From Escherichia coli (lineage in GTDB: Bacteria > Pseudomonadota > Gammaproteobacteria > Enterobacterales > Enterobacteriaceae), in the NCBI RefSeq assembly GCF_001677475.2, contig NZ_CP015229.1: a stretch of 64,000 nt of DNA. One strand, 5' to 3'. Under the pieces are notes generated by a model, which saw nothing but the letters and a program-made list of their open reading frames with translations, was not told where the DNA came from and ran no database searches. Both the position numbers and the translations under genes were made by a program. This document shows positions 29,473 through 34,361 of this stretch, piece by piece (the stretch's first letter is position 1; every line of letters begins with the position of its first letter).

Positions 29473-30126
29473 CTTAAGAAGTCCGTCGGTCAGGGGGAGC
29501 ATGAACTCTCCATCCTCACCGGAGTTGAGCTGGTTGTCAAACGTGGCGAGACCATCGCGCTGGTGGGCGAGTCGGGATCGGGTAAGTCAACCTTGCTGGC
29601 GATCCTCGCCGGGCTGGATGACGGCAGCAGTGGCGAAGTGAGTCTGGTGGGACAACCGCTACATAACATGGACGAAGAAGCGCGGGCAAAGTTGCGCGCG
29701 AAGCACGTCGGCTTTGTTTTTCAGTCATTTATGTTAATTCCTACCCTTAACGCGCTGGAAAACGTCGAACTCCCGGCGCTGCTGCGCGGTGAGAGTAGCG
29801 TGGAAAGTCGTAACGGGGCAAAAGCGTTGCTCGAACAGTTAGGACTGGGTAAACGTCTGGATCATCTTCCGGCACAGCTTTCCGGCGGCGAACAGCAACG
29901 AGTGGCGCTGGCGCGAGCTTTTAATGGTCGGCCTGATGTGCTGTTTGCCGACGAACCCACCGGCAACCTTGACCGCCAGACGGGCGATAAAATTGCCGAC
30001 CTGCTGTTTTCCCTCAACCGTGAACATGGCACCACGTTGATTATGGTGACCCACGACCTGCAACTGGCGGCACGCTGCGACCGCTGCTTACGGCTGGTGA
30101 ACGGGCAATTGCAGGAGGAAGCATGA
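29440..30126 (+). CDS. ybbA: ABC transporter ATP-binding protein YbbA (LolD-like)
   Basis: 228 aa; Walker A GESGSGKST, signature LSGGEQQR, Walker B LFADEPTGNLD. Confidence 0.9.
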   Translation: MPAENIVEVHHLKKSVGQGEHELSILTGVELVVKRGETIALVGESGSGKSTLLAILAGLDDGSSGEVSLVGQPLHNMDEEARAKLRAKHVGFVFQSFMLIPTLNALENVELPALLRGESSVESRNGAKALLEQLGLGKRLDHLPAQLSGGEQQRVALARAFNGRPDVLFADEPTGNLDRQTGDKIADLLFSLNREHGTTLIMVTHDLQLAARCDRCLRLVNGQLQEEA

Positions 30127-32537
30127 TTGCACGTTGGTTCTGGCGCGAATGGCGCTCGCCGTCGCTATTAATTGTCTGGCTGGCGCTAAGCCTGGCGGTG
30201 GCCTGCGTGCTGGCGCTGGGCAATATCAGCGATCGCATGGAGAAGGGCTTAAGCCAGCAAAGCCGGGAGTTTATGGCGGGCGATCGGGCGTTGCGCAGTT
30301 CACGCGAAGTGCCGCAAGCGTGGCTGGAGGAAGCGCAAAAGCGCGGCCTGAAAGTCGGCAAGCAGCTGACTTTCGCCACAATGACCTTTGCAGGCGACAC
30401 ACCGCAGCTGGCGAACGTCAAGGCGGTGGATGATATCTACCCGATGTATGGCGATCTGCAAACTAATCCCCCAGGCCTGAAACCGCAGGCGGGCAGCGTA
30501 TTGCTGGCCCCACGCCTGATGGCACTGCTTAACCTGAAAACGGGCGACACTATTGACGTGGGCGATGCCACCTTGCGGATTGCCGGAGAAGTGATTCAGG
30601 AGCCGGATTCCGGTTTTAATCCCTTCCAGATGGCTCCGCGTCTGATGATGAATCTGGCGGATGTCGATAAAACCGGAGCCGTGCAGCCGGGAAGTCGGGT
30701 CACCTGGCGCTATAAATTCGGCGGCAGCGAGAACCAGCTCGACGGCTATGAGAAATGGCTGTTACCTCAGCTTAAACCCGAACAACGCTGGTACGGTCTG
30801 GAACAGGACGAAGGCGCGCTGGGGCGATCGATGGAACGCTCGCAGCAGTTCCTGCTGCTTTCGGCGCTTCTGACCTTGCTGCTGGCAGTGGCAGCGGTGG
30901 CTGTGGCGATGAATCATTACTGTCGCAGTCGCTACGATCTGGTGGCGATCCTCAAAACGCTGGGGGCAGGGCGAGCGCAACTGCGTAAGCTAATCGTCGG
31001 TCAGTGGTTGATGGTGCTGACGCTTTCAGCCGTTACCGGTGGGGCGATAGGTCTGTTGTTCGAAAACGTGTTGATGGTGCTGCTCAAGCCCGTTCTGCCT
31101 GCTGCACTACCGCCAGCCAGCCTCTGGCCGTGGCTGTGGGCGCTCGGCACCATGACGGTCATCTCGCTGCTGGTGGGGCTACGACCGTACCGCTTGTTGC
31201 TGGCAACGCAGCCTTTACGCGTATTACGTAATGATGTGGTAGCGAACGTCTGGCCGCTGAAGTTTTATCTGCCGATTGTCAGTGTGGTGGTTGTGCTGCT
31301 GCTCGCCGGATTAATGGGTGGCAGTATGCTGCTCTGGGCGGTGCTGGCGGGCGCGGTAGTGCTGGCTTTGCTGTGCGGTGTGCTGGGCTGGATGCTGCTT
31401 AATGTATTACGCAGCATGACGCTAAAATCGCTACCTCTGCGTCTGGCAGTCAGCCGCCTGTTACGTCAGCCGTGGTCAACGTTAAGCCAGCTTTCGGCAT
31501 TTTCGCTCTCCTTTATGCTGCTGGCACTGCTGCTGGTGTTGCGTGGCGATCTGCTCGACCGCTGGCAACAGCAGCTACCGCCAGAAAGCCCGAACTACTT
31601 TTTAATCAACATCGCAACAGAACAGGTTACACCGCTAAAAGCGTTCCTTGCGGAACATCAGATAGTCCCGGAATCGTTTTATCCGGTAGTGCGGGCGCGG
31701 CTGACGGCGATTAACGGCAAGCCGACAGAAGGCAATGAAGATGAGGCGCTCAACCGCGAACTCAACCTCACCTGGCAAAATACGCGGCCCGATCATAACC
31801 CGATTGTCGCCGGTAACTGGCCGCCAAAAGCTGATGAAGTGTCGATGGAAGAGGGGCTGGCGAAACGCTTAAACGTTACCCTCGGCGATACCGTGACTTT
31901 TATGGGCGATACCCAGGAGTTCCGCGCTAAAGTGACCAGCCTGCGCAAAGTGGACTGGGAAAGTCTGCGGCCTAATTTCTATTTTATTTTCCCGGAAGGG
32001 GCATTAGACGGGCAACCGCAGAGCTGGCTTACCAGTTTCCGCTGGGAGAATGGCAACGGCATGTTGACGCAACTCAACCGCCAGTTCCCGACCATTAGCC
32101 TGTTAGACATTGGCGCGATTTTAAAACAGGTCGGTCAGGTGCTGGAGCAGGTAAGTCGGGCGCTGGAAGTGATGGTGGTGCTGGTCACCGCCTGCGGTAT
32201 GTTGCTGTTGCTGGCGCAGGTGCAGGTGGGAATGCGTCAGCGCCATCAGGAGCTGGTGGTGTGGCGCACTCTCGGTGCGGGCAAAAAACTGCTGCGCACC
32301 ACGTTGTGGTGTGAGTTCGCCATGCTCGGGTTTGTTTCTGGCCTGGTGGCCGCAATTGGTGCGGAAACGGCGCTGGCAGTGTTGCAGGCGAAAGTGTTTG
32401 ATTTCCCGTGGGAGCCAGACTGGCGATTGTGGATTGTTCTGCCGTGCAGCGGTGCGCTGCTGCTGTCGCTTTGCGGCGGATGGCTGGGCGCGCGACTGGT
32501 TAAGGGTAAGGCGCTGTTCAGGCAGTTTGCGGGATGA
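30123..32537 (+). CDS. ybbP: FtsX-like ABC transporter permease YbbP
   Basis: 804 aa; two FtsX-type TM bundles separated by large periplasmic domains; 4-bp overlap with ybbA. Confidence 0.9.
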   Translation: MIARWFWREWRSPSLLIVWLALSLAVACVLALGNISDRMEKGLSQQSREFMAGDRALRSSREVPQAWLEEAQKRGLKVGKQLTFATMTFAGDTPQLANVKAVDDIYPMYGDLQTNPPGLKPQAGSVLLAPRLMALLNLKTGDTIDVGDATLRIAGEVIQEPDSGFNPFQMAPRLMMNLADVDKTGAVQPGSRVTWRYKFGGSENQLDGYEKWLLPQLKPEQRWYGLEQDEGALGRSMERSQQFLLLSALLTLLLAVAAVAVAMNHYCRSRYDLVAILKTLGAGRAQLRKLIVGQWLMVLTLSAVTGGAIGLLFENVLMVLLKPVLPAALPPASLWPWLWALGTMTVISLLVGLRPYRLLLATQPLRVLRNDVVANVWPLKFYLPIVSVVVVLLLAGLMGGSMLLWAVLAGAVVLALLCGVLGWMLLNVLRSMTLKSLPLRLAVSRLLRQPWSTLSQLSAFSLSFMLLALLLVLRGDLLDRWQQQLPPESPNYFLINIATEQVTPLKAFLAEHQIVPESFYPVVRARLTAINGKPTEGNEDEALNRELNLTWQNTRPDHNPIVAGNWPPKADEVSMEEGLAKRLNVTLGDTVTFMGDTQEFRAKVTSLRKVDWESLRPNFYFIFPEGALDGQPQSWLTSFRWENGNGMLTQLNRQFPTISLLDIGAILKQVGQVLEQVSRALEVMVVLVTACGMLLLLAQVQVGMRQRHQELVVWRTLGAGKKLLRTTLWCEFAMLGFVSGLVAAIGAETALAVLQAKVFDFPWEPDWRLWIVLPCSGALLLSLCGGWLGARLVKGKALFRQFAG

Positions 32538-32554: not shown

Positions 32555-32660
<106 letters not shown>

Positions 32661-32685
32661 GTGCATTTTGGCAATAAATATGAAA

Positions 32686-32741
32686 CCAACTGTCATGTCG
32701 GTTTTTTTAAAGGCCGAAGGTGGTAAACCTTCGGCCTTAGC
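32686..32741. terminator. Terminator module of repeat copy 1: stem CCAAC/GTCGG plus T-tract and adjacent GGCCGAAGG...CCTTCGGCC hairpin, immediately 3' of the minus-strand peptide ORF
   Basis: Palindromes read from sequence; the first hairpin is a one-mismatch copy of the terminator at 33162-33190. Confidence 0.5.
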
Positions 32742-32754
32742 TACGTTTCCTCAG

Positions 32755-32838
32755 TTATTCAATAAACTGACGGATCAGTTCCAGCAGCGCGATTAGCGCC
32801 TTAAGAACGATGAGAACTTTATCGAGAAAAGTTTTCAT
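32755..32838 (-). CDS. Candidate type I toxin: 27-aa hydrophobic single-helix peptide MKTFLDKVLIVLKALIALLELIRQFIE (DinQ/TisB-like)
   Basis: Hand-translated from the minus strand; not in the supplied ORF track. SD AAGGGAG 6 nt upstream lies inside the perfect palindrome CTCCCTTAAGGGAG (32845-32858); an in-frame upstream ATG at 32908-32910 would give 51 aa. Resembles E. coli DinQ (ALIALLELIR core) as I recall that sequence. Confidence 0.6.
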   Translation of the reverse strand: MKTFLDKVLIVLKALIALLELIRQFIE

Positions 32839-33063
32839 CCGTTGCTCCCTTAAGGGAGAAAGACAATCACAGCTTACCCTTACGTTGCCTGTAACTATGA
32901 TTTTCTTCATGTGCTAGATGAGGACTGCCTCTCTCCAAATTAGAGCACCAGAATCAGCACCACCTGTATCCTGACCAGGACTTAAAAGTACTTTTCCGCA
33001 CTGCGGTAATCCCTTGAGGCAGTATCACTACTAGCGTCGGGATTGTATCGCCAGCATAGCTGT

Positions 33064-33092
33064 TTGAATATGTAGGCATCCTGACTTATAAT
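33064..33092 (+). promoter_or_regulatory. Sigma70-type promoter TTGAAT-17 bp-TATAAT driving the candidate antisense sRNA
   Basis: -35 TTGAAT at 33064-33069, -10 TATAAT at 33087-33092, predicted start near 33099. Confidence 0.55.
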
Positions 33093-33098
33093 TCACTT

Positions 33099-33190
33099 GC
33101 TAGATGAGGACTGTTTCATTTCTGCCCGGAACCACCAAGTCTTGGGCGGAAAAAAAATAAAAAAACCGACTGTCATGTCGGTTTTTTTAT
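33099..33190 (+). ncRNA. Candidate ~90-nt antitoxin sRNA (AgrB-like), trans-complementary to the toxin mRNA leader
   Basis: Bounded by the promoter above and the intrinsic terminator AAAAAAACCGACTGTCATGTCGGTTTTTTT (33162-33190). Its 5' end GCTAGATGAGGACTG (33099-33113) is an exact direct repeat of 32913-32927, so the RNA is complementary to the minus-strand toxin leader. Confidence 0.5.
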
Positions 33191-33251
33191 ATCTGTATTC
33201 TGGTGCAACCATTCTGTTCTCACGACAATCGCCGTTTCAGAATACCGCCCA

Positions 33252-34361
<1,110 letters not shown>

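Follow-up and report, generated by a model that had tools for sequence, protein, structure and literature searches.

The spacer between the genes ybbP and mnmH of Escherichia coli raises the question of how a very small reading frame is translated. In the stretch of 64,000 nucleotides (nt) analysed here, hereafter the window (contig NZ_CP015229.1 of RefSeq assembly GCF_001677475.2), the minus strand of this spacer carries a 27-amino-acid (aa) open reading frame (ORF) at 32755–32838. It is preceded by an ATG in the same frame 72 nt upstream (32910–32908), with no stop codon in between, which defines a 51-aa ORF (32755–32910), and the Shine–Dalgarno sequence (SD) of the shorter ORF is part of a palindrome. 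An initial annotation of this DNA had drawn attention to the upstream ATG, to a small RNA (sRNA) pairing site next to it and to the palindrome, and had proposed translational gating that is relieved by processing or unfolding of the mRNA, together with a possible 51-aa form. Which of the two starts is used, and what opens the SD? The answer favoured here, with a probability of about 85%, is that the region around 32838–32910 represents the 3′ part of the ~197-nt 5′ untranslated region (UTR) of a dinQ-like (dql) toxin mRNA with a dinQ-type RNA switch and a divergent AgrB-like sRNA, and that the upstream ATG is not used. Gating of the kind proposed for the window is already known from the literature, and the gene family is an annotated one.

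The 27-aa peptide (MKTFLDKVLIVLKALIALLELIRQFIE) matches the NCBIfam profile of the toxin DinQ (NF041472) over residues 5–26 with 40.9 bits (cut-off 30), and does not pass the NCBIfam profile of DqlB (NF041473; 24.5 bits, cut-off 35). Exactly this 27-aa ORF is called dinQ by the annotation pipeline PGAP, and its RefSeq name, “damage-inducible type I toxin DinQ”, is found in about 1,100–1,300 of 5,426 complete E. coli genomes. Compared with the nearest relative among the matches listed (Photorhabdus khanii locus L074, 76.5% identity over 281 nt, peptide VKAFLDKVLIVLKALVALLELIRQFID), the differences in the 27-aa ORF are distributed over the three codon positions as 4/0/7, which is a coding pattern. 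From its similarity to DinQ, the peptide would be toxic and located in the inner membrane. A hairpin at 32710–32738 on the minus strand (inverted repeat I3, 12-nt arms 100% complementary, conserved in the family alignment) is the predicted terminator of the toxin mRNA.

The divergent partner is an AgrB-like putative antitoxin sRNA of ~90 nt on the plus strand (33099–33190). It is delimited by a match to the Rfam family AgrB (RF02891) at 33100–33190 (50.3 bits, above the gathering score of 40), by a sigma-70 promoter at 33064–33092 (TTGAAT-17-TATAAT, 10/12 consensus positions), which ends 7–8 nt 5′ of the Rfam match and is the sole strong promoter match in 32600–33300, and by an intrinsic terminator at 33157–33190. 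Because both the DinQ and the AgrB profiles are passed, the site is ybbP–mnmH rather than arsR–gor (the location of dinQ proper), and carriers of this copy also possess the canonical dinQ (two places per record), the locus is classed, by homology and position, as a paralogous dql type I toxin–antitoxin module and not as the arsR–gor gene. The pair zorO–orzO, a first guess from the peptide, was rejected: the Rfam family OrzO-P (RF02083) reaches 24.1 bits, far short of the 60 bits of its gathering score, on the wrong (minus) strand and over the terminator only, whereas AgrB and DinQ pass.

What dinQ does is well documented in strain K-12. There, a 49-aa ORF contains several ATGs, and the product is a 27-aa peptide that starts at the SD-proximal GTG; only the 5′-processed +44 transcript is translated (Weel-Sneve 2013, PMC3567139). 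Four elements of the leader pair in mutually exclusive ways, as established by chemical probing (SHAPE), mutagenesis and in vitro translation (Kristiansen 2016, PMC5066626). In the primary transcript, element 1 pairs with element 2, and element 3 pairs with element 4 to form the SD hairpin; in the +44 RNA, element 2 pairs with element 3 and the SD is open (PMC5066626). Binding of the sRNA AgrB to element 2 re-closes the 3:4 hairpin and triggers cleavage by RNase III, and a conserved stem, a/a′, locks the 5′ end of the dinQ mRNA (PMC5066626).

For comparison, K-12 dinQ–agrAB, plasmid dql loci and chromosomal relatives from Photorhabdus, Hafnia, Pantoea and Cedecea were assembled. The chromosomal relatives came from a scan of a genome collection with the pattern AAGTCCTGG-N(8–11)-RGGTGGTGC, which returned at least 120 loci; among the matches listed, ~100 are chance matches in unrelated phyla and ~20 are family members. 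The ATG and the SD hairpin were examined in 26 leaders, consensus folding (RNAalifold) was applied to 23, and duplex energies were calculated for 14 non-redundant leaders.

An alignment of the leaders of the window, of K-12 dinQ and of the plasmid and Photorhabdus dql genes begins at the −10 box and reaches as far as the start codon, and the window leader is 69.7% identical to that of K-12 over 218 nt (blastn, E = 1e-12). The blocks that they share are the −10 box, the GUUAG start, AAGUCCUGG...GGUGGUGC, GUGCUCU, ACAGGCA and ACGG in front of the start codon. In the window, the −10 box of the toxin mRNA is TACAAT (33042–33047, minus strand), aligned with TATAAT or TATGAT of all family members; the spacing between this box and the conserved GTTAG start is constant in the family. 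The predicted +1 is the G of GCUAG at 33035 (minus strand), from homology with the mapped +1 of K-12 dinQ (GUUAG; PMC5066626), which gives a 5′ UTR of 197 nt in the window and 194 nt in K-12. A transcript start downstream of 32908, which the initial annotation had considered incompatible with its proposal, is not what the homology predicts, as the predicted +1 lies upstream of that position.

All four switch elements of dinQ, with the exclusive pairings 1:2, 2:3 and 3:4, and the a/a′ lock can be recognized in the window (all on the minus strand). Element a (GCUAG, 33035–33031), homologous to the 5′ end of dinQ, is the 5′ arm of the lock stem and pairs with a′ (CUAGC, 32917–32913). Element 1 (ACUGCCUCAAGGGAUUA, 33007–33023) is the partner of element 2 (UAAUUUGGAGAGAGGCAG, 32925–32942) in the predicted primary transcript, and element 2 has element 3 (32852–32866) as its alternative partner. 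Element 3 includes the anti-SD CUCCC (32858–32854), which can pair with the SD in element 4 (32851–32845, assigned from homology with K-12). The counterpart of the site at which dinQ is processed (+44) would be at about +49 (~32987), according to the alignment of UUUCAAAGUCCUGG with UUUUAAGUCCUGG of K-12, and a further stem-loop, SL4 (UCAUAG...CUGUGA, 32867–32900; RNAalifold helix, columns 157–163:184–190), separates a′ from element 3.

The SD itself (GGGAG, 32849–32845) provides the 3′ arm of a perfect palindrome of 14 nt, CTCCCTTAAGGGAG (32845–32858, palindrome I4), 6 nt before ATG 32838, as had been claimed, and folds with the CUCCC arm across a UUAA loop into the 3:4 hairpin (−6.5 kcal/mol). 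An SD-sequestering hairpin that ends 5–7 nt before the start codon is found in 25 of the 26 leaders. On the apical side of its CUCC/GGAG core, the adjoining pair can be C-G, A-U or U-A, and the basal pairs vary among G-C, A-U and G-U; these hairpins were tabulated sequence by sequence, since MAFFT loses their register across columns. The one leader without the hairpin is L009, which lies on a contig of 1,319 nt attributed to Haemophilus sputorum and combines a dqlB-like leader with a truncated peptide and a mutation in the SD arm (CUAGAG). The contig is probably a piece of a plasmid, or else contaminating DNA, on which the copy is decaying.

The sRNA target was likewise found where the initial annotation had placed it. 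It is a perfect match of 16 nt (CAGUCCUCAUCUAGCA, 32912–32927, minus strand, direct repeat D2), which includes a′ and is the core (CAGTCCTCATCTAGCA, 32927–32912) of a 22-nt repeat, 91% identical, at 32906–32927 and 33092–33113. On the plus strand, the upstream copy of the repeat corresponds to the 5′ end of the sRNA, and the core stops one base short of ATG 32910. The 16-nt target is the longest leader copy upstream, and its counterpart lies 78 nt upstream of +1. This is typical of the family, most loci of which have a copy of their own leader (positions ~95–135), 13–25 nt in length, 76–134 nt upstream of +1. As this upstream copy differs in sequence at each locus, the sRNAs and their targets co-evolve. 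The occurrence of both the SD hairpin and the sRNA target, judged from the sequences, is far beyond chance.

By analogy with dinQ, the switch would operate as follows. The primary transcript would start at about 33035, and its 5′ end (a and element 1) would pair with a′ and element 2, thereby burying the sRNA target; element 3, left free, would pair with the SD (CUCCC/GGGAG), and the mRNA would be stable but untranslatable. Loss of the first 20–50 nt, for which the counterpart of the dinQ +44 site would be at ~32987, would free element 2 to take up element 3 in a 14-bp duplex, so that the SD is released and the 27-aa peptide is made from AUG 32838. The sRNA could then bind its exposed target (32927–32912) and spread over element 2, which would return element 3 to the SD, and the resulting duplex of sRNA and leader would probably be a substrate for RNase III.

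Predicted folds are consistent with this order of events. In the full-length window leader, 1:2 has 7.3 bp, 3:4 has 3.6–4.9 bp and 2:3 has 0 bp, with the SD 1% unpaired; after removal of at least 20 nt from the 5′ end, 2:3 has 8–10 bp, 3:4 has less than 1 bp and the SD is ~17% unpaired. When the truncated leader is co-folded with the sRNA, the 5′ end of the sRNA sits on its target, pairing spreads across element 2 via G-U wobbles, and a 5-bp SD hairpin is restored. The duplex of the leader with the first 40 nt of the sRNA has a predicted energy of −55.9 kcal/mol, compared with −26.2 ± 3.2 kcal/mol for shuffled sequences. For K-12 dinQ, used as a control, the closed fold of the +1 transcript is reproduced (11.5 bp for 1:2 and 5.3 bp for 3:4).

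Duplexes between elements of the same leader are, on average, more stable than duplexes between elements of different leaders. Over the 14 leaders, the cognate 1:2 duplexes have a mean of −20.5 kcal/mol and the non-cognate ones −13.2 kcal/mol, the cognate ranking first in 9 of the 14; for 2:3 the means are −18.1 and −13.1 kcal/mol, respectively. In the window, 1:2 has −15.4 kcal/mol, and 2:3, with 14 bp and −22.2 kcal/mol, is the second most stable of the 14, after Sal_pl_L004 (−22.4 kcal/mol). Covariation provides evidence that is independent of any energy model. The a/a′ helix (GCUAG:CUAGC, columns 1–5:138–142) is unbroken in all 23 sequences of the RNAalifold alignment, despite double changes from U-A to C-G, unique to the window, and from A-U to G-C in three relatives. 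In SL4, each pair is compensated in 1–14 (mostly 7–14) of the 23 sequences. Taken with the homology to dinQ, the switch elements and the covariation in the family bear out the proposal of gating by the SD hairpin, in which processing or unfolding is needed for translation; the evidence for the switch is computational.

Several points weigh against this answer. The start of transcription, the processing, the translation and the toxicity attributed to the window are taken over from dinQ by homology. The −35 region of the toxin mRNA is weak, the promoter was missed by the consensus scan, and a LexA box was not found. Even after truncation of the window RNA, the predicted unpaired fraction of the SD is no more than ~17%. 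The perfect complementarity of the sRNA extends over 16 nt rather than the ~34 nt of K-12, and element 2 is covered by the sRNA only through G-U wobbles and one mismatch. Lastly, the energy model (ViennaRNA) misses the published opening of the K-12 +44 RNA (0.3 bp of 2:3 at cut 43), and the folding numbers are therefore only supportive.

The LexA result and the short complementarity give rise to the first of the alternatives. In 32600–33300, the LexA core CTGT-N8-ACAG was not found with up to one mismatch, nor was the 20-mer LexA consensus found with up to three mismatches anywhere in the window; at the position homologous to the LexA box of K-12, the core has 4 mismatches in the window and 1 in K-12. 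As a LexA operator was not found, “damage-inducible” is probably a misnomer for the ybbP–mnmH copy. Because a LexA box is lacking and the 16-nt perfect pairing lies just 3′ of element 2, one base before the AUG, the paralogue could have drifted from the logic of dinQ, with an sRNA that acts mainly through RNase III, or by blocking a standby site or an alternative start, rather than on element 2, and with a 51-aa isoform made in some condition. Such a drift is improbable, and the differences from K-12 in LexA control, sRNA number, complementarity and start codon leave the mechanism deduced from dinQ unchanged.

Just as improbable is that the module is a decaying relic, little or not at all expressed in this strain, with hairpin and ATG inherited without current function. 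Along with the loss of the LexA box and the weak −35 region of the toxin, such decay would fit an allele with a 108-bp deletion, which has lost the sRNA target, the SD and the start codon and may be present in ~190 of ~1,325 carriers, and it would fit polar variants of the membrane helix, found in tens to hundreds of contigs. On the other side, the intact allele is more than 99% identical across ~1,130 genomes, every switch element is intact, the double change in the a/a′ stem is compensatory and peculiar to this lineage, the 2:3 duplex is among the two most stable of those calculated, the sRNA promoter is close to consensus, and the ORF differs from its relatives in a purifying, coding pattern.

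The two kinds of variants deserve description in their own right. The 108-bp deletion (window positions 32926–32819), seen in E. coli strain 550 (L003), is bounded by the imperfect repeats AGTCCTCATC and AGTTCTCATC. From the leader it removes the sRNA target together with the upstream ATG and the SD hairpin, and from the ORF the start codon and six codons, so that the sRNA gene is left intact but orphaned; the frequency of a shortened toxin region is that suggested by coverage counts, and one allele was inspected. The membrane-helix variants, in the 51-aa cluster (P0003, P0004, P0005 and P0012), are polar or charge changes: L42Q (57 contigs), L43Q, E44K and Q23L+R47L (144 contigs), in 51-aa numbering. 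They may be attenuated alleles of the toxin. At the RNA level, Q23L falls in the spacer between SD and start codon.

A gene with two starts, in which initiation also occurs at ATG 32910 to give a 51-aa isoform and the sRNA blocks this start directly, is less probable again, although the frame is open, the ATG is real and the sRNA target adjoins it. The region around this ATG is A-rich and weakly paired in the truncated fold, the N-terminally extended forms DinQ II–IV are toxic when made from the ribosome-binding site of a vector (PMC3567139), which means that a longer product might be active, and many database records carry a call of the 51-aa ORF. By inspection of the sequence, no SD is found 5–12 nt 5′ of ATG 32910; the nearest purine-rich run, GGAGAGAGG, is ~18–26 nt upstream. 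An in-frame upstream ATG without an intervening stop is present in 6 of the 26 leaders (the window, two K-12-type dinQ, L009, L129 and L039), which is about the ~25% expected by chance (our estimate, for uniform codons), and is absent from the other 20, including the nearest relative among the matches listed; in many relatives, stop codons close the frame 4–14 codons upstream. In contrast to the ORF, the 72-nt extension differs from that of L074 evenly over codon positions (9/6/9), and in seven further comparisons the extension is not depleted of differences at codon position 2, whereas six of the seven show such a depletion in the ORF. The match with the DinQ profile gains nothing from the 24 residues of the extension and is lower for the 51-aa form (38.4 bits) than for the 27-aa form. 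In dinQ, the upstream in-frame ATGs are unused and natural transcripts yield only a product of 27-aa size (PMC3567139). Rare variants within the species fall in the extension and in the toxin part alike and are uninformative on the 51-aa form.

Since it has no SD, is not conserved, heads an extension without codon signature and resembles the unused ATGs of dinQ, ATG 32910 looks incidental, a by-product of the leader sequence, and the 51-aa form raised by the initial annotation is not borne out. Public databases list the 51-aa as well as the 27-aa sequence as DinQ; the 51-aa entries are longest-ORF start calls. The habit of annotating a longer N-terminus was already noted by Kristiansen et al. 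(PMC5066626). The correct product to annotate is the 27-aa peptide, and not the 51-aa ORF of many records.

Least probable is that the upstream AUG region serves as a standby or entry site from which ribosomes melt the SD hairpin, as at the tisB standby site or in translational coupling: the low predicted opening of the SD after truncation, the coverage of this region by the sRNA duplex and the statement by Kristiansen et al. that standby cannot be excluded for dinQ (PMC5066626, Discussion) would suit it, but the SHAPE and in vitro translation results for dinQ fit SD opening by 2:3 alone (PMC5066626), covariation favours 2:3, and a standby function cannot depend on an AUG that is not conserved.

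The dinQ-type switch preferred here can be set against the systems to which it is related by descent or by design. With K-12 dinQ–agrB, the window shares a 27-aa single-helix peptide with the common core IVLxALIALLELIR and a leader, ~195 nt long, in which the conserved blocks recur. It also shares elements 1–4 and the a/a′ lock, an SD hairpin 6–7 nt before the start, and a divergent AgrB-type sRNA that pairs around element 2 through its 5′ end; in both, in-frame upstream ATGs give a spurious longer ORF (49 aa in K-12, 51 aa in the window). It differs from K-12 in its site (ybbP–mnmH rather than arsR–gor), its start codon (ATG rather than GTG), the lack of a LexA box, the single sRNA gene in place of two (agrA and agrB), the 16-nt rather than ~34-nt perfect complementarity, and a leader that is ~70% identical. 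The class to which the locus belongs is that of the dql genes (dqlA and dqlB, on chromosomes and plasmids of Enterobacteriaceae), i.e., dinQ homologues outside arsR–gor with a conserved leader. These dql genes are often annotated with a longer N-terminus, and some strains have both dql and dinQ (PMC5066626). Fourteen dql sequences are included in Kristiansen 2016, and the present locus may be one of them, perhaps as dqlA. Unlike the plasmid-encoded DqlB (31 aa), the window peptide lacks a 9-residue insertion.

Other type I modules resemble it in logic. As in tisB–istR-1, a long leader precedes the toxin and the primary transcript is inert (the active form of tisB is 5′-processed, at +42), and there too the sRNA binds far 5′ of the SD and triggers cleavage by RNase III; unlike the window, tisB uses a ribosome standby site, keeps its SD closed after processing and is regulated by LexA, and the two have no sequence homology. 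The zorO–orzO pair also combines a small helical toxin with a divergent sRNA of short (18-nt) complementarity, and its leader of 174 nt inhibits translation and, once processed, enhances it. In a 2024 survey, part of the zor leader was 71–74% identical to plasmid dinQ leaders (PMC11264685). The window peptide, in contrast, matches the DinQ family and not ZorO. Until processing occurs, a fold-back lock in hok–sok similarly shields the full-length mRNA from translation and from the antisense RNA alike; there, however, the lock is a 5′–3′ pairing that is removed by 3′ trimming, translation is coupled to that of the upstream frame mok, and the two systems are not homologous.

The arrangement of the promoters adds a possible further layer. 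The −35 hexamer of the sRNA (TTGAAT, 33064–33069, plus strand) overlaps the weak −35 region of the toxin mRNA (33063–33070, minus strand), on the opposite strand. As the predicted starts of the sRNA and the toxin mRNA, which diverge, are 64 bp apart with overlapping −35 regions, the two promoters may compete for RNA polymerase. Inside the leader, just 5′ of element 2, TGcTCTAAT (32947–32939, minus strand) resembles an extended −10 box; the family consensus at this position is GTGCTCTGG, and the AAT is thus specific to this lineage. A start ~7 nt 3′ of it would give an RNA without element 1 and half of element 2, and truncations like this one keep the SD closed in folding predictions.

The module is flanked by ybbP (30123–32537, plus strand) on the left and mnmH (33252–34346, minus strand) on the right. 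Of 5,426 complete E. coli genomes, 1,332 have the 611-bp spacer between these genes, and the locus is accordingly accessory, being absent from about three quarters of them; O157:H7 strain TR01, for instance, matches the mnmH end of the spacer only. The locus adds to the known family a chromosomal and probably SOS-independent paralogue of dinQ, which roughly one in four complete E. coli genomes possesses. It opens no new question, and its significance is mostly for annotation. As only K-12 dinQ has so far had its RNA switch dissected, the ybbP–mnmH copy is a possible natural variant and could serve to test how much sRNA complementarity the switch requires.

That the closest relative of the E. 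coli copy, among the matches listed, is in P. khanii (L074) hints at horizontal transfer. Photorhabdus genomes carry several dql copies, with three or more in both P. khanii and P. thracensis (L006, L021–L023, L049, L072–L074 and L079–L080 in the genus). For most of these copies, a stretch of the leader repeated upstream over at least 9 nt was not detected, so that their antitoxin, if any, would not be in the usual place.

Between ybbP and the module, there are palindromic elements at 32575–32657 that resemble repetitive extragenic palindromic (REP) sequences; the Rfam families naRNA4 (40.4 bits) and ES036 (35.0 bits) match there, both under their gathering scores. The whole sRNA–toxin module is bracketed by a direct repeat of 27 nt (32683–32709 and 33163–33189, 96% identical), the right copy of which is the bidirectional terminator of mnmH and the sRNA, and the left copy a degenerate version of it. 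This bracketing repeat looks like a duplication left behind by insertion of the module.

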